IMG/VR virus record: IMGVR_UViG_3300025327_000007
Length of the DNA stretch: 39,115 nucleotides
Source of the DNA: a virus
Strand: one strand, 5' to 3'
The notes under the pieces are model-generated. The model was given only the letters and a program-made list of their open reading frames with translations. It had not been told where the DNA came from and did not search any database. A program made the translations under genes and the position numbers. Below are positions 128 through 17,779 of the stretch, piece by piece. How positions within the stretch are numbered: the first letter of the stretch is position 1; each line of letters begins with the position of its first letter.

Positions 128-1804
128 GCGGCTCTGGTACGCCTTGCCGATGTTCACCGTCACGCCGTACGCACCCTGCTTCAGGTCGTAGTGCTTCGCC
201 CCTTCCACGCCTTCCCGGGACTCGATTGGCATCCCCGTCGTACGGTCGATCGTGAACGGCTTCCCGAGCATGATCGGGCGCGGGCGTAGCTCAGCGTCGA
301 TCACCTGGGCAATCCGTCCCGGCCGGTCGTAGACCACAGGCATCGCATCGAGCAGGATCCGTGCAGCGAGCGGCATGCTGACCAGCTTCATGTTCTGGAT
401 GTAGCCGCTGGTGCTCGAGTCCGCCTGATTCTGAAGCAGCTCGATCGCCTTCCCCGACTGACGTCGCGCTTCGAACCGACCCAGCGCAGCGTCGGTGATG
501 TTCGTGGAGGACTGGATGTCGTTGTCCATCTGCTGCGCAAGCTGGAGCGCCATCCCCAGCTTCGACGTGTCCGCCTGGAGTCGCTGTGGCAACGATGGCG
601 CCGGTTGACCATCCAGCAGCGTCGGCCGAACCTCGAGGTAACTCCAGTTGTGCGTGTTGACCGTATCCCACTTGTGCTCGTGCCCAGCGAACTGACCCTC
701 CCAGCCCACCACCGGCGCCTTCGGCTCGAGCGCCGTGATCTCGATCGCGGTCGTTACCGCGTAGTTGTAGCCCCGGCATGCATCCATCGCGGGCCCCACG
801 AGACCCTGACGCCGACGTTCGCCGTCGAACGGCTGTAGCTCCTCGCCGATCGTCGGCACCAGCGGGATGTAGCGCTTCCCGGGCCAGACGTCGGTCTCGA
901 GCACCTCCGCCGCTGTCAGCTTGTGGATCAGGATCTTGGTCGCCTGCATGTCGCGTGAGGGACCGTCAGGCTGCACCAATCGACCGGCCGGAAGCTCGTC
1001 GTCGTAGCCAGAAGACCCATCGTCGAGCGTGACGTAGCGGCGCGTCTTGCTCTCCTTGCGGAAGTACTCGGCGACGAGCACGGCCTTGGTGTCTAGGTCT
1101 CCCGTCACCCATTCCGGCTCGGCCAGACGCAAGTCCTCGAACACCTGGTCGTCGCCATAATCGGTCTTCGCGTTCGGAAACTGTTCCTTGAAGTCGTCCA
1201 GCGGTACCCACGTCAAAACGAACGCGAACCGGCCATCGCTACGATCGGCACGCTGCGCCACGGGATCGAACAGCACCAGGGATTGGTCGAAGATCCGCTC
1301 GAAGATGAGCTTCTGGTCCAGCGGATCCTGCGTCTCCTCGTCCCACACGTTCCGGATCCGGAACGCTCCCGACCCGCATTGCAGCGCGCGATCCATCGCC
1401 CAGAACAGCACGTTCTCGGCGCCTTCGCCATCCGCTTCGATCGTGCGGATCAGATCCTGGCGGATCTCGGCACCCTCCTTGCTCGAGGTTTCGTTCTTCG
1501 GATGGATGTTGATGCCCAGCTGACTCGCGCGGAACTGGTTGCGTACAAGGTTGAGCGGCTGTCGGGTCTTGGGAATGCTCAGCATCGGGCGCTTGGGTTG
1601 CGTACCACCTGCACCCTCGCGGGCATCGCGCGCAGCAGCATCCCACTGGTACTCGCCGACCTGGAAGCGCAGAACTTCCTTCTCGCGGTCGCGTTGCTTG
1701 GCTTCAGCAGCCATCGCCTGCTTGAAGCGCTTCTTGGCCTCATCGAGGATCGCCTTGTCCGCCACCGACGGGCCCTCGCTCTCTACGCGCCGCGGCTTGG
1801 CCAC
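1..1804 (-). CDS. Portal protein (P22 gp1-like), N-terminal ~601 codons; the ORF runs off the left edge and continues at 38988->38564
   Basis: The frame is open from GTG 1804 (1 nt after the terL stop) to base 1. My translation gives ..EAKQRDREKEVLRFQVGEYQWD..MLSIPKTRQPLNLVRNQF..YIPLVPTIGEE.., which parallels P22-type portals. The frame is continuous through the repeat (ATG 97 = 39085). Total length is about 742 aa. Confidence 0.85.
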   Translation of the reverse strand, partial: MAKPRRVESEGPSVADKAILDEAKKRFKQAMAAEAKQRDREKEVLRFQVGEYQWDAAARDAREGAGGTQPKRPMLSIPKTRQPLNLVRNQFRASQLGINIHPKNETSSKEGAEIRQDLIRTIEADGEGAENVLFWAMDRALQCGSGAFRIRNVWDEETQDPLDQKLIFERIFDQSLVLFDPVAQRADRSDGRFAFVLTWVPLDDFKEQFPNAKTDYGDDQVFEDLRLAEPEWVTGDLDTKAVLVAEYFRKESKTRRYVTLDDGSSGYDDELPAGRLVQPDGPSRDMQATKILIHKLTAAEVLETDVWPGKRYIPLVPTIGEELQPFDGERRRQGLVGPAMDACRGYNYAVTTAIEITALEPKAPVVGWEGQFAGHEHKWDTVNTHNWSYLEVRPTLLDGQPAPSLPQRLQADTSKLGMALQLAQQMDNDIQSSTNITDAALGRFEARRQSGKAIELLQNQADSSTSGYIQNMKLVSMPLAARILLDAMPVVYDRPGRIAQVIDAELRPRPIMLGKPFTIDRTTGMPIESREGVEGAKHYDLKQGAYGVTVNIGKAYQSRQQQGQEQLAQMIQAAPEMLTVFGDIWARFLDVPGSQELAARL

Positions 1805-1805
1805 G

Positions 1806-4373
1806 CTACACCCCCATCCAGGACCCAGGCCGTTTCACGCGAGACGTCGGCCGCTGGACGACTCCCACCGGCGCAGCGAACGTGAGGCTCAAGGCATCCC
1901 CTTCGTCTGGAGAGTCTACACCCCGTCCCTTCATTTGCTCCTTGCTCTCGAGCCACACGCGCTGACGCGGGTCGGGTCGCACGCCGGGTCCGATCAAGTC
2001 GCTCTCGAGCTCCGCGCTCGTGTCGATCGCGCCCACGAGCAGCCACTCCTTCATCTGCTGCCACATGTAGTCGCGATAGTACCGGCACTTGCTGTCGGGG
2101 CTGTCGCTGCCGAAGTTGATCTCGCGCACCTGCTGAAACCCAAGCGCCCGGAGCCGCGCGCCTATCGGGCCCGCGATCCCCGCGCTGTCCAGAAACAGCG
2201 CCGCTACCGGATGCTCATCCCATGTGCGTGACAGCACGTCCGCCAACCGGTTGACGAGCACTGCCGGGTCGCGCGTGAACTCGCCCTTGATCCGGATCGG
2301 AGAGATCGACCGCGCATCGTTCCCGCGCCGGAACCGGATCACGTTGTCGTCACTGTTCCCACTCCACATCGGAACACCATGACGACGAACATAGATCGTT
2401 CGGTGCGGAGTCGAGACACACCACACAAAGCCGCGATACGGGACACGTTGTGTTGTCCGCTTGAGTACGGTCCGATCTGCATGCCAACGATTCCCTTGCC
2501 GACCATGTGATGGACGCTCACCCACGCGCCAAGTATCGTGCTGTCGCACCACACGGCGCCCTTCGATCAGCACAACCGATCCGGCTGGTGCCGCGGGCGA
2601 CAGCTTACCGGCACACCCCAACTTCGCAAGCACTTCCTGCAGATCATCCGCCAATGCTCGACTGGAGGTGTAGTAGCAACGTCCGGTTCCATCCGGATGC
2701 TGGCTCCCATCTCCACGCCGAAATGCGTCGAGAAAGGCCCGCATCACGATAGCGGAACCTTCCTTGATCCATTCGGGCATGCGCTTATTCGCAGCTCCAT
2801 GCCCGCAGTGCTCCAGTAACCAAGCCCCAATCCCCCGATGTTGGAAACGGATCGTGCCATGCGAACTCCACCGACTATGACGGAGGCCCATTCGAGAAAG
2901 TAGGCGTTCGATTTCTTTGCGCTTCTCCGCATGGCGTTGTGAAAGCTCTACGACGAGTGGGCGTTGCTGCTGACCTGGCCGCAGCTTCGCCGTATAGACG
3001 TTCCCCTCAGCAACGAACCAGCCCAAAAACGCCGCCCAGTCTTCGGCGGCAAAGGTGTGGCGCCAGACAACAGCGCCCCCGTGAGGCTGGCGTTTCTGAG
3101 ATTCGAAGGCGATCGTGGCTGGACTTGTCCCTTCCCAGCGATGCCACGCCCGCAGTTGATATGCCTTCGGGAGACGATCGTACCGCCGAATCTGGTAGCG
3201 CTTGCTCATGTAGTGCGAGCGCACGATGAAGTTGTGGTTGTCAGTTACGCAAAAGTTTACCTTGCTCGACTCGCGCAAGTTCATCGCCCCATCATGCCAG
3301 TAACGATGGATCGCCGTCATGCGCGCCCAAGTGGCTACGTCGCCATCCAAACTCAGCACTGCTTCCGATCCACGCAGGTCTGAAAAGAGTTTCCAGCCAT
3401 CGCTCGTGAGAATCTCGGTCTCGCAGTCGAAACAGCCGCCCCACGCAAGGTCACACCCGACCACCAGCGGCTCGTCCGGCATCACCGCCACCTGGCGCTT
3501 CTGAGCCTGGAGTACACGCTCGTGGTCGATGAACTGTGCGTCAGAGGCCCGCGGCGGAATGCCGCGGACCCGGACGCGGAAAAAGTCGGAGTCCTCTCCG
3601 AACTCCTGCTCCCACTCCGCGATCTGCGCCTTGTTCGTCAGCCGAGACTGACGCGAGTCGATGATCGTCGGGTGCCAACGCGCACGGTCGTGACCGAACA
3701 CCGCGGCGTGAAATCCGCCCATGCTGCGCGTCGGGTTGCCGAACCGGAAGATCATCGGCTGACCGTCCGTCAAGCCGCCCTCCGCGACCTCGTGAATCTT
3801 GTCCGAGATGGCCGAGTCCTCGTCGAAGATGTAGAAGCTCGTCGAGGTCGCTGCGTGCTGGCCGGCGAACGCTTCCGTGTTCTCCTCCTTGCACGACTGC
3901 GGCGCGCAGAACCAGGAGTCCTTGTGGTCCTTGTGGTACATGCGCTGGTCGCCGAGCACCCACCAGTGCGCAGTGATGCAGCGCGACGTCCACTCCTTGA
4001 TGGCGGACCAGGTCTTGGTCTGGAGCTGCGTGAACGTGTTCGCCGTGACGGTGCCGCGCGCTAACGGACGTGTACTCATGATCCAGTCCACAAGCCACGC
4101 GGCCATCGTGCTTTTGCCCACCCCATGACCTGACGCCACCGCACGCCGGATGGGCGCGACCGGCGTCAAGCCGTCAAACGCTGCGGCCGCGACCTCAGCG
4201 CCGACGCCCCGCAGAAACTCACGCTGCCAGATGTCGGGCCCGTCGTGCCCCTCAAGGGCCCCGGGCTCGCCCCACGGATACGCGAACAGCACGAACCCCA
4301 GCGGGTCCGCGAAGTAGCGCGCGACCTCGTCTGCAAGCTGATCGTCAGAGGTTGGACGGGCGGCCACGGGCAC
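1806..4373 (-). CDS. terL: Terminase large subunit, interrupted by a 360-aa intein
   Basis: 855-aa ORF with Walker A GHGVGKST and Walker B FYIFDED. The nuclease motif VVGCDLAWGG/SDDNVIRFRRG is split by the intein. The gene lies between terS and portal. Confidence 0.9.
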   Translation of the reverse strand: MPVAARPTSDDQLADEVARYFADPLGFVLFAYPWGEPGALEGHDGPDIWQREFLRGVGAEVAAAAFDGLTPVAPIRRAVASGHGVGKSTMAAWLVDWIMSTRPLARGTVTANTFTQLQTKTWSAIKEWTSRCITAHWWVLGDQRMYHKDHKDSWFCAPQSCKEENTEAFAGQHAATSTSFYIFDEDSAISDKIHEVAEGGLTDGQPMIFRFGNPTRSMGGFHAAVFGHDRARWHPTIIDSRQSRLTNKAQIAEWEQEFGEDSDFFRVRVRGIPPRASDAQFIDHERVLQAQKRQVAVMPDEPLVVGCDLAWGGCFDCETEILTSDGWKLFSDLRGSEAVLSLDGDVATWARMTAIHRYWHDGAMNLRESSKVNFCVTDNHNFIVRSHYMSKRYQIRRYDRLPKAYQLRAWHRWEGTSPATIAFESQKRQPHGGAVVWRHTFAAEDWAAFLGWFVAEGNVYTAKLRPGQQQRPLVVELSQRHAEKRKEIERLLSRMGLRHSRWSSHGTIRFQHRGIGAWLLEHCGHGAANKRMPEWIKEGSAIVMRAFLDAFRRGDGSQHPDGTGRCYYTSSRALADDLQEVLAKLGCAGKLSPAAPAGSVVLIEGRRVVRQHDTWRVGERPSHGRQGNRWHADRTVLKRTTQRVPYRGFVWCVSTPHRTIYVRRHGVPMWSGNSDDNVIRFRRGNDARSISPIRIKGEFTRDPAVLVNRLADVLSRTWDEHPVAALFLDSAGIAGPIGARLRALGFQQVREINFGSDSPDSKCRYYRDYMWQQMKEWLLVGAIDTSAELESDLIGPGVRPDPRQRVWLESKEQMKGRGVDSPDEGDALSLTFAAPVGVVQRPTSRVKRPGSWMGV
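2355..3434 (-). mobile_element. Intein with LAGLIDADG homing-endonuclease domain inside TerL (aa 314-673)
   Basis: It starts CFDCETEILTSDG and has two dodecapeptide motifs (LGWFVAEGNV, FLDAFRRGDGS). It ends ..VPMWSGN followed by a +1 Ser. Excision restores GCDLAWGG-SDDNVIRF. GC is locally lower. Confidence 0.8.
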
Positions 4374-12138: not shown

Positions 12139-12213
12139 TGGTAGCGGAGGCGGGAGTTGAACCCGCATCCTCTCGGTTATGAGCCGAGCGCGTTACCGTT
12201 TCGCTACCCCGCG
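12139..12213 (-). tRNA. tRNA-Met (anticodon CAT), 75 nt with encoded CCA
   Basis: Folded by hand. Acceptor CGCGGGG/CTCCGCT; D arm GCGA-AACGGTA-ACGC; anticodon arm CTCGG-CTCATAA-CCGAG; T arm GCGGG-TTCAACT-CCCGC; then A-CCA. Confidence 0.85.
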
Positions 12214-12216
12214 TCA

Positions 12217-13608
12217 TCAGAACCTCGCAGGCCGGCAGACGGCCACGTATCCGCCCTTGCGCACGCGGCCGTTCGCGAAAACGATGTCGAACTGCTCGCT
12301 GCGGTCGTTGCTGTCCTTGACGCCGACTTCGTCATCGGACCCGCCTCCGGGCGTCTCCATCTTGGTCGTGGCGCAGAGCCCGCGCAGGCGTAGGCGGCGC
12401 GCGACCTCGGCGGTGAACTCGGCTTCATCCGCCACTTGGTTCGTCCCGCGCTCCGCGATGATCTCGTCGAGCACCTCGTCCACGACGCCCTGGAAGCGCG
12501 ACGGGCCACACCACTCACGCCACTTCTCGACCATCCGGCAGCAGCCGTAAATGCCCTTCTCCTCGCTGCCTGGCGCGCTGCACTCGGGCATCGGCGCAAC
12601 CCCGCACGGAGTCGGGGCGGGCACGGGTGCGGCGCCACCACCGAACATGGGCAAGAGGCGGAACCACTCCGAATCCGAGAGAGTTCCTTTCCACGCGATC
12701 AGGTGCCCTCCGTTCGCCCGGCTGAGACGCTGCATCTCCAGCCAATCCTCGGGCGTGTGGGGTTCGTTGTCGGACTCGATCAGCAGCTCGCCCCTGACAG
12801 CCGGGCGCCAGCCGTGGCCGACGACGAAGTCGAGCGCGTACCGGCCGCTGTTGCTCCCGATCAGTTTCTCGAACGGCGAGAGCCCCGATTCTTCTAACGC
12901 ACCTTGGACCGCTCGATAGATCCCGCGGATCCACGCCTCCGAGCGCTCGCCCTTGAAGCTCTCGTTGCCGTCGAAGTACACCGCGGCGGGCGACTGGCAT
13001 GTCGCCTCGACCACTTGGCGGATCCAGTCCTTGTGCCTCTGCTCCGGCGCGCGCGCCGTGACCTCCAGCCCATCTCCCCACGGCGTCTTGTCGTGATCCA
13101 GCGCCCAATGGTCGATCAGGCCGATCAGCGCGTAGATCCCGCGGGCCTCGCACTCGCGCACCGTGCGCGCCAGCTCCGGTAGCAGCGCCTCTGGCGAGGG
13201 GCTGCGGAATGGTCCGGGGCGCAGCTCGGTGATGTTGATGCCGGCCGCAGCGTAGCGATCGAGCATCGCGGGGATCACCAGCGGCCAGCCCCAGGCGATG
13301 CCCTCGTCCACGTCGGGCGTGTCGGGGTCGTCGCAACAGACCGTCGCCCCGATTAGCGGCGGGAAGAACTCCGGGAACTCGTACCGCAGCTCCGGCATCG
13401 TCGGCTCGGGCGGAGGCGGTGGCGGCGGAGGCCCAGCGTCCGGAAAGCGCTCCGCGAACTCGGGACTGCGCAGCATGTCCTCGCGGAGCTGCGCCTCGTG
13501 CAGACCTGCCTGCATCCGCGCGTTGTGGTGAAGCAACCCTTCGGCATCTGGCTCACGAAGCAGGATCTCACGATAGGCTAGCGCCACGACGTGACGGAAG
13601 TCGCTCAT
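12217..13608 (-). CDS. DUF4214-like N-terminal domain + proline linker + clan GH-A-like glycoside hydrolase + Cys-rich C-terminal domain
   Basis: YREILLREPDAEGLLHH..SPEF matches the DUF4214 pattern and is followed by P8. The motifs YFDGNESF and LLIESDNEP are TIM-barrel-type. Confidence 0.55.
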   Translation of the reverse strand: MSDFRHVVALAYREILLREPDAEGLLHHNARMQAGLHEAQLREDMLRSPEFAERFPDAGPPPPPPPPEPTMPELRYEFPEFFPPLIGATVCCDDPDTPDVDEGIAWGWPLVIPAMLDRYAAAGINITELRPGPFRSPSPEALLPELARTVRECEARGIYALIGLIDHWALDHDKTPWGDGLEVTARAPEQRHKDWIRQVVEATCQSPAAVYFDGNESFKGERSEAWIRGIYRAVQGALEESGLSPFEKLIGSNSGRYALDFVVGHGWRPAVRGELLIESDNEPHTPEDWLEMQRLSRANGGHLIAWKGTLSDSEWFRLLPMFGGGAAPVPAPTPCGVAPMPECSAPGSEEKGIYGCCRMVEKWREWCGPSRFQGVVDEVLDEIIAERGTNQVADEAEFTAEVARRLRLRGLCATTKMETPGGGSDDEVGVKDSNDRSEQFDIVFANGRVRKGGYVAVCRPARF

Positions 13609-14003
13609 GTCACCCTCAACTGGAACTCAGGGCGGTTTCCCGCTCGGTTCATGAACTCGACGAAACCCGCCTCGCTCGCTGCGATCCCGGGCTGACCAGC
13701 AAACGTCGCGTACGACTCGCCTACGAGCACGCAGCCCTCGGAGTGTAGCTCCACGTTGCCCTTGTGGAACAGCAGCCGCGCGTGCCCAGGCACTTCGATC
13801 TCGTACGTGTCGTACTCGCCTCGGAGGTAGCGCGTCCGCACGCAGCGCCAGAGGCCAGCTGGGATCTTCACGAGCTGGCCCGGACCCGATGGCAGCGCGT
13901 AGGTCCTCTCCAGGGTCGTACAAAACGGAACGTCGTGATGAAGCAAGACACCGAACGCTCCTTGCGGCAATACGACAACTCGCACGAGGGTAAAGTCAGC
14001 CAC
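13605..14003 (-). CDS. DUF5675-like protein with YkuD-type H..S.GC motif (candidate cell-wall enzyme)
   Basis: VADFTLVRVVVLPQGAFGVLL..TLERTY..IPAGLW..LLFHKGNVELHSEGCVLVG. GTG 14003 overlaps the HNH stop. Confidence 0.6.
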   Translation of the reverse strand: MADFTLVRVVVLPQGAFGVLLHHDVPFCTTLERTYALPSGPGQLVKIPAGLWRCVRTRYLRGEYDTYEIEVPGHARLLFHKGNVELHSEGCVLVGESYATFAGQPGIAASEAGFVEFMNRAGNRPEFQLRVT

Positions 14004-14601
14004 GGGCACGGAACGCACGCGCTCTCGTCTTGCAGATTTCACGGTACTGCGAGTCCTCCCGATACCGTTGTCTGCGTCGCGCATTTTCTCTGGTGCGGAA
14101 CCAGACAGAATCTTGTCGCCGCCGATAGTCTGCTGTCTTCTTTGCAGAGCATCGCCGACAGTGACGCCTCCCTGACCTGGCAACGTCGAATTGGTGCCCG
14201 CGGAGGCATTCCGTTTTTCGCGCGTTTACCGCCGTCACGCCAACACCGCGCAGTACGTTTTGTCCCCTCGTCGTTACTTCAAGGTGGTTCGGGTTCACAC
14301 ACCGGCGCACGCGGCATAGGTGATCGAGGGTGAGTTCCGTGGGAACAGGACCAACCAAATGTTCGTAAGCGTACCTGTGGGCGGAGGTCTTTCGATCTAC
14401 AAGCGTGAAACCTCCATACCCATTGGACGTCGATCCCCCGAGCCAACCCCAACAGTCGCCATGGCGAAAACCGCCGACTTCCATCGGGATCACCTTGGAC
14501 CAAAACCTGTTCGGGAGACGATCGTCGCCAAGTCTGCAAGGCAGTACGCCGAACGCGCCCTCGGGACGGATCGCGACGCGCAGCAGACCGAAGTCCTCCA
14601 T
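13996..14601 (-). CDS. HNH (HNH_3-type) homing endonuclease fused to a 20-aa DUF5675-like leader
   Basis: RFWSKV..CWGWLGGSTSNGYGGF..AHRYAYEHLVGPVP..LDHLCRVRRCVNPNHLE, plus a C-terminal CLRGH..CRRC. GC is lower. Confidence 0.8.
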   Translation of the reverse strand: MEDFGLLRVAIRPEGAFGVLPCRLGDDRLPNRFWSKVIPMEVGGFRHGDCWGWLGGSTSNGYGGFTLVDRKTSAHRYAYEHLVGPVPTELTLDHLCRVRRCVNPNHLEVTTRGQNVLRGVGVTAVNARKTECLRGHQFDVARSGRRHCRRCSAKKTADYRRRQDSVWFRTRENARRRQRYREDSQYREICKTRARAFRARG

Positions 14602-14792
14602 CACCGAAACTCCGCACGCACGCCGTGCCGCGCCATGTGCTCCACCACAGCGTTGATGGCTCCCTGCTTGGTCGCGTACACCCGAACGAACGAGCACTTC
14701 CCGCACGCCCAGCGCAGGCCGCCGCCTGCAACTGGCACCAGAAACACGACCGCACCGCCTCCGGCTTCGCCAGCGACTACGTGCGCCGTCAC
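14601..14792 (-). CDS. Hypothetical protein (63 aa)
   Basis: GTGA-coupled start VTAHVVAGE.. inside tracked ORF 14601..14861. Confidence 0.45.
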   Translation of the reverse strand: MTAHVVAGEAGGGAVVFLVPVAGGGLRWACGKCSFVRVYATKQGAINAVVEHMARHGVRAEFR

Positions 14793-14905
14793 CAGTGCCT
14801 CGGTCGGATATAGCCCCAGCGATGCATCTGGCGCCGCTCCCACCAGCGACGTAGCCACCACCCGACGCCAGTGCCAGCGATGAACGCGAGGATCTCCTGG
14901 GTCAC
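14789..14905 (-). CDS. 38-aa TM micro-protein (VTQEILAFIAGTGVGWWLRRWWERRQMHRWGYIRPRHW)
   Basis: GTGA overlaps at both ends. Hydrophobic helix followed by a basic tail. Confidence 0.35.
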   Translation of the reverse strand: MTQEILAFIAGTGVGWWLRRWWERRQMHRWGYIRPRHW

Positions 14906-15246
14906 TCGCGCGGCCTCAGCGCCCGGATTTCGCCCGTGATCGAGCCGATCGCACGCATGACCTCGCCGTGACGGTCGCCCGCCTCACTGCGGATCGCGGC
15001 GACGTCCTCGCGCACAGCCACGAGCCCCGCCTCGACCACCGACACGCGGACCTCGATCCCGCCCGCCCGCTCTTCCAGGACACCGCACGACCGCTCGCGC
15101 CGCTCATGATCGTGGCCGCTCGCTTCCCCGTTTTTCGCTCGGGCCGCACGGATGAGTCGCACGAGCGGGATGCCACCCAGAGCCGTGACGGACACCAGCA
15201 GCGTCGCGGCGAGGAGCTGACCTTCGGTGATCCGGGACCAGTCCAT
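14902..15246 (-). CDS. N-terminal TM + coiled-coil protein (114 aa; spanin- or holin-like by shape)
   Basis: MDWSRITEGQLLAATLLVSVTALGGIPLV.. followed by a helical segment. TGATG coupling. Confidence 0.5.
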   Translation of the reverse strand: MDWSRITEGQLLAATLLVSVTALGGIPLVRLIRAARAKNGEASGHDHERRERSCGVLEERAGGIEVRVSVVEAGLVAVREDVAAIRSEAGDRHGEVMRAIGSITGEIRALRPRE

Positions 15247-15536
15247 CACCACACCTCGGGCGCGCACCCGCCCGCCTGATATCCGTGCAGGTACTGCTGC
15301 CCGAAGTCGAGCAGCACGAAGCGCCCCCCAGCCTGGTCGCACAGGAAGTACAGCACCATCCGCTTGTCCCGATAGAGGATGTTCCCGGTTGGTGCCTGCT
15401 GAATCGTCGTCGGGATCGGCTGGGTCGCCGGCTTCACCGGCTTCGCCGCGCCTAGGCCGCCGGCTCCAGCAATCCACCCGAGCAGCGCAGTCGCCGAGCA
15501 GAACAGGAGCAGCTCGATCAGGCGTACCCGATCCAT
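15246..15536 (-). CDS. Signal-anchor/secreted hypothetical protein (96 aa)
   Basis: Tracked ORF with N-terminus MDRVRLIELLLFCSATALLGWIAGAGG. Confidence 0.55.
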   Translation of the reverse strand: MDRVRLIELLLFCSATALLGWIAGAGGLGAAKPVKPATQPIPTTIQQAPTGNILYRDKRMVLYFLCDQAGGRFVLLDFGQQYLHGYQAGGCAPEVW

Positions 15537-17332
15537 TATTCCCTCGCGTACGTCAGCAGGTTCGGGCCCACGACCCCGGTCAGCGTGTCGGGCGTGGCGC
15601 TCGCCAGCACGCAGCGCATGACCTCGACCGGGTCACCCGTGGTGCGCTGCGCGCAGAGCGCAGCGACACCTGCGGCGTGAGGGGAGGCCATGCTCGTCCC
15701 GCTGAAAGTGATTGAGCCGCCCCCGCGTCGTGCTGCCTCGATGTCCATGCCAGGACCATAGAGGTCAGTGCAAGGACCGCCGTTGCTGAAATCGGCCCCG
15801 CGATCGTTTCGTGGGTCCATGGCGCCGAGAGTTAACGCCAGATCCACACGGGCCGGCGAGGATCCGCAGGCATCGGCGCCATCGTTACCAGCTGCGACCA
15901 CGACCGTGAGGCCATCCGCGATGGCAGCGCAGACCGCAGCGTCGAGAGCAGGCGCAGGCGAGCCGCCGAGCGACATGTTGAGCACGCCGTTCCAACCGCC
16001 AGCCTTCCGATTCGCCGCAGCCCATTGGATACCACGGACTACGTCGGAATCGGAACCGCTGCCTTGCTCGTTCAACATCCGCACCGAGTGCAGAGTGACA
16101 CGTTTCGCGATGCCGTACTGTGTACCACCCGTGATAGAAGCCACGTGCGTCCCATGGTTGTGACGGTCCTCGCAGCCACCAAAGGTGTGCGCAGTGAAGC
16201 ACTCCCCCAGACGTCCAGCGAATTCGGAATGCTGCGAGTCGATGCCCGTGTCTCCGATGTACGCATGGATGCCCTCTCCAGTCCCAACGGGAACGAAGAT
16301 GCCGTCAAGAGGCAAGTCGCGCTGATCCGAGCGATCGAGACCGGGCGTGACAGACACGGTCAAATGTGATACTGTCTGTCCATGCACGCTCGAAACTCCG
16401 GATCCTTCCGGCCTGGGCACAAGACGTGGAACAAAGGACTGCTGAGACCACGCAGCGAACTCGGCGTCCGCTTCCAGAAGTACATACGGCCAGTGAACAC
16501 GGGCTGCCATCTCTGGACTGGAGGCTTCGCGCACGGATATGGACGCTTCCGTTTCACCACGGACGAAAGCAGAAATGCCCATCGTGTGGCTTACGAGTTG
16601 TTCGTTGGCCCGATCCCGACGGGGATGCAAGTCCATCACATCTGTGGAACGCGTGCTTGCGTCAACCCCGATCATCTGCGACTGATGACCATCGGACAGC
16701 ACACCTCGCATCATTTCCGAGGCAAGCCGAAGCGTGGTCTGCGGTGTCGCAATGGACACGAACTCTCGGCCGCGAACCTGCGAGAGGTCTATCCTCCGAA
16801 TCGCCCTGGACCTTCCATGCAATGCCGTCTCTGCGAGCGAGATCGAGGACTGCGTTGGCGAAGCCGCCACCCCGAGACCTATCGGGCCGGATACACCAGA
16901 AGCAACTTGCGACGCCAGAACCAACACACCTGAGCGCGTACTCTTGCGCCCGTCTTGCTGGACGTACGCCACCTCCGGATCGAGCGCTACCTGCGAGGCG
17001 CCCGCCGCTGTCGTCACCGCGCTGAAACCGAGGCTCCCGAGCGTCTGCACCTGGCTCAGCACCGAGTACCGGGCGGCGACCGCCTGCACCTCAGCCTGGG
17101 TCCGCACCGACTGTGCCCCCACGCGCGGACGCAGCACGACGATGTATCTGCCCTCGATCGGCTCGGCCACGGAGATCACGCCGCGCAGCGCGGGAGGCGC
17201 GGAGCAGACATAGGGCGTCTCCGGCTGCGGCGTCGGGATCGGGAAGGGCGGGCTCGGGATGGGGATCGGGAAGCCACCTCCGCACGACACCAGCAGCAGG
17301 CACAGTACGATCGCGATAGCGTGTCGAATCAA
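15536..17332 (-). CDS. Subtilisin-like (S8) serine protease lipoprotein with I9-type propeptide and a ~200-aa insert
   Basis: Catalytic triad DTGID / HGTHVAS / GTSMASPH. GGAGG lies 6 nt upstream of TTG 17332, giving MIRHAIAIVLCLLLVSC (lipobox). The insert is the antisense of the HNH gene. Confidence 0.8.
   Translation of the reverse strand: MIRHAIAIVLCLLLVSCGGGFPIPIPSPPFPIPTPQPETPYVCSAPPALRGVISVAEPIEGRYIVVLRPRVGAQSVRTQAEVQAVAARYSVLSQVQTLGSLGFSAVTTAAGASQVALDPEVAYVQQDGRKSTRSGVLVLASQVASGVSGPIGLGVAASPTQSSISLAETALHGRSRAIRRIDLSQVRGREFVSIATPQTTLRLASEMMRGVLSDGHQSQMIGVDASTRSTDVMDLHPRRDRANEQLVSHTMGISAFVRGETEASISVREASSPEMAARVHWPYVLLEADAEFAAWSQQSFVPRLVPRPEGSGVSSVHGQTVSHLTVSVTPGLDRSDQRDLPLDGIFVPVGTGEGIHAYIGDTGIDSQHSEFAGRLGECFTAHTFGGCEDRHNHGTHVASITGGTQYGIAKRVTLHSVRMLNEQGSGSDSDVVRGIQWAAANRKAGGWNGVLNMSLGGSPAPALDAAVCAAIADGLTVVVAAGNDGADACGSSPARVDLALTLGAMDPRNDRGADFSNGGPCTDLYGPGMDIEAARRGGGSITFSGTSMASPHAAGVAALCAQRTTGDPVEVMRCVLASATPDTLTGVVGPNLLTYARE
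16382..16933 (+). CDS. HNH (HNH_3-type) homing endonuclease nested antisense in the protease ORF
   Basis: CHLWTGGFAHGYGRF..AHRVAYELFVGPIP..VHHICGTRACVNPDHL, plus CRNGH..CRLC. This is the only convincing plus-strand gene. Confidence 0.8.
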   Translation: MHARNSGSFRPGHKTWNKGLLRPRSELGVRFQKYIRPVNTGCHLWTGGFAHGYGRFRFTTDESRNAHRVAYELFVGPIPTGMQVHHICGTRACVNPDHLRLMTIGQHTSHHFRGKPKRGLRCRNGHELSAANLREVYPPNRPGPSMQCRLCERDRGLRWRSRHPETYRAGYTRSNLRRQNQHT

Positions 17333-17464
17333 GCCACACCTCCTTCCTGAAAAGCGCTCACCGAGCAACCCGCCGGCCTGGTAGACTCGCGCCAACCGCA
17401 CCACCAGAGGCGAGAGGACTCGACCCGACTGGACCATGCGCCAGCGGGCTGCTCGCTGAGCGCA

Positions 17465-17779
17465 TCACGGGCACCCAAGCCGGCAACCCGCCGGCCGACC
17501 GGCGGCCACACAGTGACCGTTGCGGGCCGCGGCGGGCAAGCTGAGCCACGCTACACAGTCCGCGCGCCGGTCGTCGGCGTCGTGGTCGCTCACGATCGAC
17601 ACCAGACACGGGCCCACAAGCGCGTTGAACGCCGCTTGTTCGGTCCCGAGCCCACGATCCGTGCGGACGCGCTGAACCGTCACCTGTTCGCGTGCGGTGG
17701 CGTTGTAGGTGTAGCTGGTCTGTGCGACCACGAGTGCGGCTACGAGGAACAGCAGTACGGCGAATGCGACCTTCTTCAC
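17465..17779 (-). CDS. Secreted small protein (104 aa)
   Basis: AGGAGGG lies 4 nt upstream of the GTG. Signal peptide MKKVAFAVLLFLVAALVVAQT. Confidence 0.6.
   Translation of the reverse strand: MKKVAFAVLLFLVAALVVAQTSYTYNATAREQVTVQRVRTDRGLGTEQAAFNALVGPCLVSIVSDHDADDRRADCVAWLSLPAAARNGHCVAAGRPAGCRLGCP

Follow-up and report, generated by a model that had tools for sequence, protein, structure and literature searches.

An HNH endonuclease gene was found lodged inside a DUF5675 gene of a tailed phage, fused in frame to the first 20 codons of the gene that it interrupts and followed by a complete DUF5675 gene with a replaced 5′ end. This arrangement probably arose by one-sided homing, in which homology-based repair with co-conversion would have closed the right end, the left end being joined illegitimately at the break. 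The DNA analysed, hereafter the window, is the whole of record IMGVR_UViG_3300025327_000007 (39,115 nt), and all features of the HNH locus (HNH, DUF5675 and both neighbours) lie on its minus strand. Upstream, a called 86-aa gene of unassigned function (14601..14861; counterpart in contig L010 at 2575..2835) is 80% identical in nucleotides (blastn) to the upstream gene of HNH-less relatives, and its TGA stop (14603..14601) overlaps the leader ATG as TGATG. The overlap at 14601, which had been described as a native coupling kept by the first copy of the DUF5675 5′ end, is thus present. The chimeric leader-HNH ORF (13996..14601) encodes 201 aa and is found in public data, except for one substitution, as protein P0001. 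Its first 60 nt (14542..14601) are the leader, or copy 1, corresponding to DUF5675 codons 1-20 as judged from identity to relatives and a DUF5675 HMM. Then come the intact DUF5675 gene (13605..14003; 132 aa, GTG start; Pfam PF18925) and the conserved right-hand neighbour, a 463-aa gene (12217..13608) that is 89% identical in nucleotides to its counterpart in L001 and L002, shows a weak Pfam match to DUF4214 and overlaps the DUF5675 end with its start as ATGA. Elsewhere in the window, the large terminase gene (1806..4373) carries an intein-like insert.

The leader, MEDFGLLRVAIRPEGAFGVL, shares 12 of 20 residues (35/60 nt) with the DUF5675 N-terminus, VADFTLVRVVVLPQGAFGVL, reproducing the count of an earlier sequence-only reading, according to which the HNH ORF opens with a diverged copy of that N-terminus. 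The similarity was upheld at profile level, where an HMM of 120 DUF5675 proteins matched the leader with its positions 5-24 (14.7 bits, E = 1e−6 for this single comparison), and the repeat is judged not to be a product of chance. In relatives with an uninterrupted gene, the DUF5675 N-terminus reads MEDFGLLR(V/I)AIRPEGAFGVL, and the leader is identical to it in 20/20 residues (P0123) or 19/20 (P0122). At the nucleotide level, 55/60 positions (92%) are shared with L001, the codon differences being five synonymous and none non-synonymous, and the GGAG-N8-TGATG context upstream of the leader is identical in the HNH-less contigs L001, L002 and L005. Furthermore, the leader appeared in none of 119 HNH homologues, and the match to the phrog_826 profile (HNH endonuclease; E = 4e−39) spans aa 27-178 of the ORF, that is, it excludes the leader. 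A conserved independent HNH domain is therefore ruled out, since the leader is the native DUF5675 N-terminus in relatives and is absent from the HNH homologues.

The uninterrupted DUF5675 gene was found between the same neighbours in eight contigs from related phages (L001-L008). The breakpoints were read from blastn and codon tables because MAFFT placed the 5′ ends of the relatives on copy 2 without splitting them. The window has an insert of 628 nt (14540..13913; HNH body plus replacement DUF5675 5′ end) vs. 30 nt (codons 21-30) in the HNH-less relatives, flanked by two blastn blocks against L001 (14848..14541, matching 889..1193, and 13912..12209, matching 1224..2933). On the left, homology breaks off abruptly behind codon 20 (...CTGC|), the identity being 25-27/30 right up to this junction, while the right junction is best read as a homologous crossover near codon 30. 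Copy 2 (codons 1-20) and codons 21-30, lying together at 13914..14003 in the codon alignment with L001, show the profile of a co-conversion tract, with 51/90 identical nucleotides (57%) compared to 53/60 (88%) for codons 31-50. Mismatches with L001 accounted for 39 of the first 90 nt (43%) vs. 36 of the remaining 309 nt (12%) (Fisher, P = 2.8e−10). Moreover, residues 1-30 matched the closest relatives in 18/30 positions, no better than distant family members (the top match among 119 being 19/30), in contrast to 91-92 identical residues out of 102 for aa 31-132. The GC3, counted from codons, was 0.57 for codons 1-30 vs. 0.80 for codons 31-50, and the right breakpoint falls where the value changes, at about codon 30; the GC3 of the entire HNH ORF was 0.62. 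Copy 2 and codons 21-30 are thus taken to be foreign. The comparison with uninterrupted relatives that the sequence-only reading had proposed as a check therefore gave a native copy 1, a foreign HNH body plus 30 codons, and 88% identity from codon 31. The 57% to 88% switch supports its claim that an endonuclease cassette came in together with a co-converted piece of the target gene of a donor, and the relatives and the complete 132-aa DUF5675 gene bear out a chimera followed by an intact target. Its description of a low-GC second copy with high GC3 resuming downstream also held, except for the extent, as the tract ends at about codon 30, 10 codons past the repeat and not 30.

The presence of the HNH gene varied among collinear contigs with alike flanks, being found in L009, L010 and L091 but not in L001-L008. 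The HNH-carrying contigs are nearly identical to each other: L010 is 99.98% identical to the window over 9566 nt, L009 is 99.5% identical, and L091 carries the same HNH and DUF5675 pair. An assembly artefact can be excluded because the arrangement recurs in these three other public contigs. The possibility that the HNH-less relatives are deletion derivatives generated by recombination between the repeats was also rejected, as their codons 21-30 match copy 2 in only 13/30 nt. Among about 155 IMG/VR and metagenome loci scanned with HNH and DUF5675 HMMs, HNH appeared beside DUF5675 only in the lineage of the window. The closest HNH homologues (47-60% identical) neighbour other genes; no DUF5675 gene adjoined HNH in 80 viral loci with HNH relatives or was seen in the neighbourhoods of homologues P0039, P0006 and P0005. 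A single-protein scan of viral contigs found no close DUF5675 relatives, and the donor allele was not found in the databases searched.

Regarding the endonuclease itself, the HNH_3 (PF13392) match at aa 74-116 (14254..14382), the His-Me finger catalytic core, had an E-value of 7e−11 and 42 bits against a cut-off of 24.8 bits. All 13 invariant residues defined from an alignment of 40 family members are kept (C50, W53, Y62, R76, H94, C96, C101, P104, H106, R118, H136, C148 and C151), and the catalytic His (DH94LC), the N/H106 of NPxHL and the zinc-binding Cys expected of a family member are all present. No in-frame ATG, GTG or TTG occurs between the leader ATG and codon 37. In homologues P0025 and P0039, 8-17 residues stand ahead of the motif FGDDRLPxRFW, so that PCRLGDDRLPNRFW would be HNH-derived and the HNH start removed by the junction; as the left junction lies inside the HNH 5′ end, no own HNH start exists upstream of the conserved N-terminal motif. 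A Shine-Dalgarno-like sequence, AAGGTGATC, complementary to the 16S 3′ end, is located 3 nt before the ATG at codon 40, and a shorter leaderless HNH is therefore possible, additionally or instead. Rather than having an independent start between host genes, as free-standing endonucleases do, the ORF begins with 20 host codons, being thus free-standing-like in behaviour and structurally a fusion. An intron or intein reading was rejected: no Rfam family was detected in 13400..17600 at the gathering threshold or at E ≤ 1, the HNH ORF had no Hint/intein match in Pfam, and the HNH stop codon followed by a restart of the host gene means that there is no extein continuity. Around both HNH genes of the window no promoter-like site was found, and terminator-like sites numbered 1 vs. 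2.0 expected by chance.

The DUF5675 gene was said to begin four codons before the HNH stop; its GTG actually lies 5 nt before the first base of that stop, and the start (VADF) overlaps the HNH end by 8 nt, GTGGCTGA. No Shine-Dalgarno sequence was found within 10 nt of this GTG (14003), and an alternative in-frame GTG at 14042, 12 nt after GGGAGG, is used by public gene callers for P0121 (145 aa). The product matched PF18925 with an E-value of 1e−13 (51.5 bits vs. a cut-off of 26.7) and keeps the family-invariant residues E32, G50, H80, G90 and C91. It is probably a C82/YkuD-like peptidoglycan peptidase or lysin. Its AF2 model had a pLDDT of 95.6, and the fold matches in BFVD were other viral DUF5675 proteins and an ‘L,D-carboxypeptidase/transpeptidase’ (E = 3.6e−4, TM 0.75). 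Nothing significant was returned from the PDB by Foldseek, where the top TM-score was 0.44 (LdtMt2), or by sequence search. The H80...SEGC91 motif is one that we take to resemble YkuD. The C82-like label for the domain comes from a 2026 preprint, so that hints at a peptidase came only from this preprint and BFVD.

A similar organization was found in two other contigs (L251 and L076), where an unrelated HNH gene has a native 5′ remnant on one side and, on the other, a downstream gene whose 5′ end is recoded. The pattern appeared three times in about 90 loci of a small screen, with breakpoints at codons 17-23 in the three 5′-end cases (window, L251 and L076). In L251 and L076 the remnant is unfused and the HNH has its own start, so the fusion is not generally required. 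Furthermore, the window harbours a second HNH_3 gene (16382..16933, plus strand; 183 aa), identified by Pfam HNH_3 (E = 1.6e−16) and phrog_826 and 33% identical to the first (blastp). It lies antisense and in frame within the ORF of an S8 protease (subtilase; 17437..15536, minus strand), at the propeptide/mature junction. Compared with P0242 of the HNH-less contig L244, this ORF has an in-frame insert of 197 codons (16343..16933, minus strand), which begins with TCA, the complement of the second HNH stop codon, and matched none of 119 S8 homologues. Next to it, a tract of the S8 catalytic domain (aa 366-580; 15698..16342, minus strand) has a nucleotide identity to L244 of only about 0.6, vs. 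0.87-1.0 upstream and 0.85-0.93 in the last 50 codons, and is closest to other S8 proteins (63-65%), not to P0242. The second HNH gene also shows one abrupt junction and an adjoining foreign tract, and is regarded as a parallel instance of such an invasion. However, an open antisense frame through it has a chance expectation of about 15% at this G+C content, so no selection is claimed for it.

Under one-sided homing, the donor phage would have borne the HNH gene directly upstream of its own DUF5675 allele, and the enzyme would have cleaved the allele lacking the HNH close to codon 20/21, where the conserved GAFGVL is encoded. At the right end, homologous copying from the donor would have taken in the HNH gene and co-converted codons up to about 30. 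At the left end, with no matching homology, joining would have been illegitimate, inside the HNH 5′ end, with a chance of 1/3 of being in frame. Survival of the in-frame product is proposed to depend on the DUF5675 start, at which translation of the HNH would now begin to give a fusion with a 20-aa leader; translation of DUF5675 itself would begin at the new GTG, coupled to termination at the HNH stop. Having been recoded (58% nucleotide identity to copy 1), copy 2 should protect the HNH-carrying allele from the enzyme and should also block deletion of the HNH gene by recombination between the repeats.

The fusion could instead be an accident of ORF calling, with the leader an untranslated or irrelevant remnant and the HNH made from the internal ATG at codon 40 or the GTG at codon 37. 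This is rather unlikely, even though AAGGTGATC precedes codon 40 by 3 nt, the prior for an in-frame joining is 1/3, and the remnants in L251 and L076 are unfused next to HNH genes with their own start. The motif GDDRLPxRFWxKV (aa 25-37) is intact and in frame upstream of codon 40, nearly all members of the 40-sequence alignment begin before the position of the RFW motif, and the alignment to the PHROG HNH profile begins at aa 27. Moreover, the 39 codons ahead of codon 40 are free of stops, and the leader retains a canonical GGAG-N8-ATG together with the coupling to the upstream gene. Tandem duplication in situ, in which the first 20 codons were doubled around an inserted HNH gene and copy 2 then mutated, would account for two collinear copies that are both bona fide DUF5675 N-termini. 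It is effectively refuted by the divergence of copy 2 and the next ten codons (43% vs. 12% for the remainder of the gene, P = 2.8e−10) and by the GC3 of this tract, which is like that of the HNH and unlike that of the host gene; in addition, codons 21-30 are foreign though unduplicated, and it is the non-essential copy 1 that is still identical to the relatives. Such an origin is thus highly improbable.

Ordinary phage mosaicism, that is, illegitimate or homeologous recombination independent of the nuclease, with an HNH that is possibly inactive or otherwise employed, was given a small share of the probability, lower than that of an internal start. HNH cleavage is a prediction from sequence, neither the donor nor other HNH-DUF5675 pairs were found in the approximately 155 DUF5675 loci, and the slot is plastic in recombination, as a non-homologous gene, Hydrolase_2 (PF07486), occupies it in relatives L244, L246 and L247. 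Against this, the combination of a native remnant, an HNH gene and a recoded target end is shared by three or four HNH_3 genes that are independent and differ in their targets; the foreign tract adjoins the HNH gene in both cassettes of the window; no catalytic or zinc-binding residue has been lost; and presence/absence polymorphism in syntenic relatives is a hallmark of homing genes. Finally, many phage HNH proteins assist terminases (PMC11855218), and the gene might belong to packaging or encode an HNH domain that naturally has this N-terminal extension. The odds of this are close to nil, as it is refuted by the HNH-less relatives: the gene is missing from close relatives, the large terminase gene is about 10 kb distant, and no other family member has the leader.

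One-sided homing can be compared with several known systems. Free-standing endonucleases of the T4 type (SegF, SegG, SegB and MobE) show intronless homing, co-conversion and marker exclusion (PMC2988022, PMC2790892, PMC2330249), and co-conversion from their cleavage sites has been described (PMC2988022). Like them, the nuclease gene of the window lies outside any intron or intein, varies in presence among syntenic relatives and adjoins its presumed target, which has a tract of donor sequence. In contrast, it is not intergenic but lies within the target ORF, 20 codons from its beginning. It is fused to these 20 codons, its own start being lost; the target has been made complete again with a duplicated and recoded 5′ end, and one of the junctions is non-homologous. 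One-sided illegitimate repair of double-strand breaks was described for homing of the T4 td intron with limited exon homology, and has been proposed in a review as a route of mobile elements to ectopic sites (PMC2988022). The presumed break in the window would likewise have one homologous and one non-homologous side, although the td case is an experimental plasmid/phage system with an intron, as opposed to a natural free-standing HNH in a presumably productive translational fusion. In Aeromonas phage Aeh1, mobE splits nrdA (PMC2988022, PMC10448857), also with an HNH homing gene in a coding region without intron or intein and with host function retained. However, the Aeh1 host protein consists of two reassembling polypeptides, while duplication of the 5′ end keeps that of the window whole, and the 20 codons left over join the nuclease. 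Paquin et al. (1994) reportedly described an Allomyces atp6 hybrid gene with a mitochondrial endonuclease gene fused in frame. Fusions of rps3 with LAGLIDADG endonucleases are attributed to Sethuraman et al. 2009 in PMC12308204, and partial duplication of the adjacent exon occurs at some fungal mitochondrial introns, in one case ascribed to homing-associated gene conversion (PMC12308204). These fungal fusions also have an endonuclease ORF in a coding region and in frame with part of the host gene, with gene ends that are duplicated or displaced, but they are organellar, involve LAGLIDADG or GIY-YIG enzymes and mostly the 3′ end of the host gene, unlike a phage HNH_3 at the 5′ end that would now use the ribosome-binding site of its target and the coupling to the upstream gene. 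The ‘hidden’ out-of-frame HNH within a methylase ORF of phage ShiLan (PMC11855218) is closest to the second HNH gene of the window, not to the leader-HNH arrangement; both are embedded in a stop-free host ORF, with no detectable splicing element, but ShiLan has it on the same strand in another frame, and the window on the opposite strand, codon-aligned in antisense at the propeptide/mature junction.

Taken together, and only tentatively, phage HNH_3 homing genes might enter coding genes by a general, undescribed route that is free of introns and inteins. They may land about 20 codons into the downstream target, bringing with them a recoded, putatively cleavage-immune 5′ end for it. In the fullest form, that of the window, the ribosome-binding site and start of the target may have been captured as a leader fusion, giving one translationally coupled unit. 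A second route may be the antisense stop-free insert at a protease propeptide junction, which maturation of the protease could remove. Counting the intein-like insert of the terminase, three different solutions may thus coexist in one 39-kb genome.

To our knowledge, the only ways in which homing endonuclease genes endure in essential coding regions are introns or inteins, intergenic sites or, rarely, gene splitting. The leader-HNH locus, whose two breakpoints could be placed by comparison with naturally occurring uninvaded alleles, would add another way, in which the invader supplies a recoded spare 5′ end, keeping the host gene whole, and uses the orphaned host start. The predicted cleavage site lies at codons 20/21 of the uninvaded allele and the predicted determinant of immunity is the recoded copy. 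The locus would also provide natural evidence that one-sided illegitimate repair carries endonuclease genes to new sites in phages. For annotation, short ‘N-terminal extensions’ of phage HNH proteins and tiny upstream ORFs can be relics of invaded genes, and the pattern of remnant, HNH and recoded 5′ end is open to systematic search.

The HNH ORF (14601..13996, minus strand) encodes 201 aa, of which aa 74-116 form a Pfam HNH_3 domain, and it is followed by the DUF5675 gene (132 aa), running from a GTG at 14003 to 13605 on the same strand, which carries nearly all genes of the window. The window is a segment of a tailed-phage genome, whose PHROG matches include a major head protein, a scaffold protein, a head-closure protein, a Sak4-like annealing protein and a large terminase. 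At TGATG, the HNH start codon shares bases with the stop of the 86-aa gene upstream of it, and the HNH stop overlaps the DUF5675 GTG in GTGGCTGA; hence, the DUF5675 start, placed four codons before the HNH stop by the sequence-only reading, needs a small correction. An alternative GTG at 14042, behind GGGAGG, was chosen by gene callers for the protein P0121. Moreover, a tRNA-Met (CAT) gene appears at 12139..12213 (minus strand), directly downstream of a 463-aa gene.

The first 20 residues of the HNH protein (the leader, 14542..14601, minus strand) and of the DUF5675 protein have 12/20 aa and 35/60 nt in common. This likeness, already noticed from the sequence alone, held at profile level, as positions 5-24 of an HMM of 120 DUF5675 proteins aligned to the leader with 14.7 bits (E 1e-6, single comparison). 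Furthermore, the closest public DUF5675 relatives, the uninterrupted proteins P0122 and P0123 (83% identity overall), begin with MEDFGLLR(I/V)AIRPEGAFGVL, then LHKGLPF..., and therefore the leader agrees at 20/20 residues with an uninterrupted DUF5675 N-terminus. The leader is not a conserved N-terminal domain of HNH enzymes, being absent from the homologues P0002-P0120 and from a 40-sequence alignment, and the PHROG HNH profile spans only aa 27-178 of the window protein, without the leader. Judging from these comparisons, the repeat is real.

The uninterrupted DUF5675 gene was found in eight HNH-less contigs (L001-L008) with the same upstream and downstream genes, which allowed the breakpoints to be mapped as had been proposed. 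Using blastn, positions 14848..14541 of the window matched 889..1193 of L001, and 13912..12209 matched 1224..2933, and thus 628 nt in the window (14540..13913) stand opposite 30 nt in the relatives (codons 21-30). The left junction is abrupt (after ...CTGC), with 25-27/30 identity to the relatives maintained up to it, and the right junction is a crossover within homologous sequence near codon 30. The first copy is identical to L001 at 55/60 nt, with five differences that are all synonymous. The second copy and the next ten codons (13914..14003, minus strand) are identical at 51/90 nt, compared to 53/60 nt for codons 31-50, which supports the earlier proposal of an endonuclease cassette arriving with a co-converted piece of the donor's target gene. 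Mismatches amounted to 39/90 in the first 90 nt of DUF5675 versus 36/309 elsewhere (Fisher p = 2.8e-10). At the protein level, residues 31-132 were identical to P0122 and P0123 at 91-92/102 positions and residues 1-30 at 18/30, with distant family members being no worse in the latter (best 19/30). GC3 was 0.57 in codons 1-30, 0.80 in codons 31-50 and 0.62 in the HNH ORF; the lower GC of the second copy thus stood, while the tract, thought to reach roughly 30 codons beyond it, proved shorter. The same arrangement appeared in three other assemblies, L010 (99.98%), L009 (99.5%) and L091 (same HNH and DUF5675 pair). The leader fusion is carried by a single near-clonal lineage.

Different origins were weighed for this arrangement. 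An intron was rejected, as no Rfam intron matched in 13400..17600, and so was an intein in the HNH ORF, given that no intein signature is present and that a stop and restart separate HNH from DUF5675. A duplication in situ was discarded because the diverged copy is the functional one, about four times more diverged than the rest of the gene, and because the non-duplicated codons 21-30 are likewise foreign. Nor are the HNH-less alleles deletion derivatives of the invaded one, since their codons 21-30 resemble those adjoining the second copy at only 13/30 nt. The preferred reading, an invasion with co-conversion that left the leader fusion, is considered probable, with less confidence attached to the specific cleavage site and to coupled translation.

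One junction is homologous and comes with a co-converted foreign tract, and the other, where the retained host codons end, is abrupt and non-homologous; this combination is consistent with one-sided repair after an endonuclease cut. The donor phage would have carried HNH immediately upstream of its own DUF5675 allele, expected to start VADFTLVRVVVLPQGAFGVLLHHDVPFCTT, and its enzyme would break the uninvaded allele at about codon 20/21. From the right end, donor sequence would then be copied through the donor DUF5675 5′ end and HNH, and the left end would be joined illegitimately. The recoded second copy should resist cutting and, with 58% identity to the first, should be too diverged for a recombination deleting HNH. 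For T4, it is established that co-conversion proceeds from the sites cut by free-standing endonucleases and that one-sided repair can be illegitimate when homology is limited (PMC2988022). No donor of HNH and the foreign 5′ end was found in the DUF5675 and HNH loci searched.

All 13 columns invariant across 40 HNH family members are intact in the window protein. In the homologues P0025 and P0039, the motif FGDDRLPxRFW is preceded by 8-17 additional residues, and therefore the window PCRLGDDRLPNRFW is HNH-derived; the left junction accordingly lies inside the 5′ end of HNH itself, whose start was removed. After the leader ATG, no in-frame start codon was found before codon 37 of the HNH ORF, and thus the conserved N-terminal HNH motif can be translated only from the DUF5675 start. 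The TGATG overlap attributed to the first copy is present, and the GGAG-N8-ATG context is the same in the HNH-less relatives. The main rival to the fused protein is a shorter HNH product from the ATG at codon 40, for which the Shine-Dalgarno-like AAGGTGATC before that codon leaves room. Regarding DUF5675, no ribosome-binding site was found within 10 nt of its GTG, and its translation is therefore probably coupled to that of the HNH ORF.

The DUF5675 fold, predicted with high confidence (pLDDT 95.6), gave nothing significant in a PDB search (best TM-score 0.44, an L,D-transpeptidase), and its BFVD matches were other viral DUF5675 proteins and one annotated L,D-carboxypeptidase/transpeptidase. 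A 2026 preprint counts the domain among candidate lysins and calls it C82-like. Moreover, in three relatives a 133-aa PF07486 Hydrolase_2 cell-wall hydrolase replaces DUF5675 between the same two neighbours (L244 6741..7142, L246 5299..5700 and L247 4864..5265, against 14601..13605 in the window), a non-orthologous swap that hints at DUF5675 being a lysin-type enzyme. Taking the fold matches, the C82-like class and the shared slot together, DUF5675 is likely a putative peptidoglycan peptidase.

About 110 HNH_3 hits in the retrieved loci were screened for peptide repeats flanking HNH, using mismatched loci as the null (99th percentile 55.6, maximum 64). The window lineage scored 67, and the other loci to stand out were L251 with 66 and L076 with 90. 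At L251 (ENA ERZ27257269 k141_1001781, 2235..3359), a 23-codon remnant (MQLVSRERIDAYRARRPGTLLSC and a stop), whose ATG overlaps the stop of the upstream gene, comes first, then a spacer of 195 nt, the HNH_3 gene P0005 (2501..2980) and a downstream gene beginning MASRERIDAYRERRRATLLT... The remnant, which is not fused to HNH, and the start of the intact gene have SRERIDAYR(A/E)RR..TLL in common (14/18 aa), with 20/27 nt identical and codon differences silent at the amino-acid level. At L076 (IMGVR_UViG_3300015203_000006, 2784..3625), MVDTGGAQRHPADTERL appears on either side of HNH (2848..3375), identical at 17/17 aa and 37/51 nt, and the uninterrupted relatives L253 and L254 begin MVDTGGAQRHPGDTERLMAYWAEG..., the same peptide. 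In the second copy, 8 nt are inserted precisely at codon 17/18, and its first 17 codons are thereby not in the reading frame of the remaining gene (TAATG restart). Just upstream lies another HNH gene (2077..2634). Among the three cases, the remnant is fused in frame to HNH only in the window. In these three unrelated targets the breakpoints all fall at codons 17-23, which suggests that the invasions follow a regular mode.

As for known systems, Allomyces atp6 is presumably a related fungal case. Intronless homing with co-conversion, mobE gene-splitting and one-sided illegitimate repair are known (PMC2988022, PMC2790892, PMC10448857), and PMC12308204, which cites Sethuraman 2009 for endonucleases fused in frame to host genes in fungal mitochondria, also describes some introns with a partial duplication of exon sequence. 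In the literature searched, no paper combined 'partial duplication' with phage homing terms and no phage case of a 5′-end duplication with leader fusion was found.

The window has a second HNH_3 gene, at 16382..16933 on the plus strand and with 33% identity to the first; it is embedded in antisense orientation in a 633-codon subtilase (S8) ORF (17437..15536, minus strand). The S8 protease of HNH-less relatives (P0242; L244-L248) has 434 aa. Compared to P0242 and L244, identity is 86% in the propeptide part (aa 1-169), only ~60% at the nt level in the catalytic core (aa 366-580; 16342..15698, roughly 650 nt) and again 85-93% over the last 50 codons. When the parts are taken separately, the core is nearest to other S8 proteins, not to P0242. 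A 197-codon insert stands in frame exactly at the propeptide/mature junction, between RKSTR and GLDR, versus RKSTRAVPWGLDR in the relative; it matched none of the S8 proteins compared and begins with TCA, the complement of the second HNH's stop. In this cassette, too, one junction is abrupt and a foreign tract is present. The protease is read in the codon-aligned antisense frame, and the second HNH lacks TTA, CTA and TCA codons; at this GC content ~15% of such genes would be stop-free in that frame by chance, so survivorship suffices as an explanation. Among published cases, the nearest analogue is the hidden HNH of ShiLan, lying out of frame on the same strand, whereas the second window HNH is antisense (PMC11855218). 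The first 35 codons of the S8 ORF (17332..17437, minus strand) are probably untranslated: public gene calls begin at codon 36 (P0241, 598 aa), giving a lipoprotein-type signal ending LLLVSCGGG, and nt identity to the relative is 0.6 over aa 21-45. Finally, the large terminase ORF (1806..4373, 855 aa) contains a 360-aa insert (aa 314-673; 2355..3434, minus strand) with a LAGLIDADG_3 domain (E 7.6e-9), beginning CFDCETEIL and ending MWSGN before S. This insert resembles an intein carrying a homing endonuclease, and if so, it would be the third selfish nuclease in this 39-kb genome.
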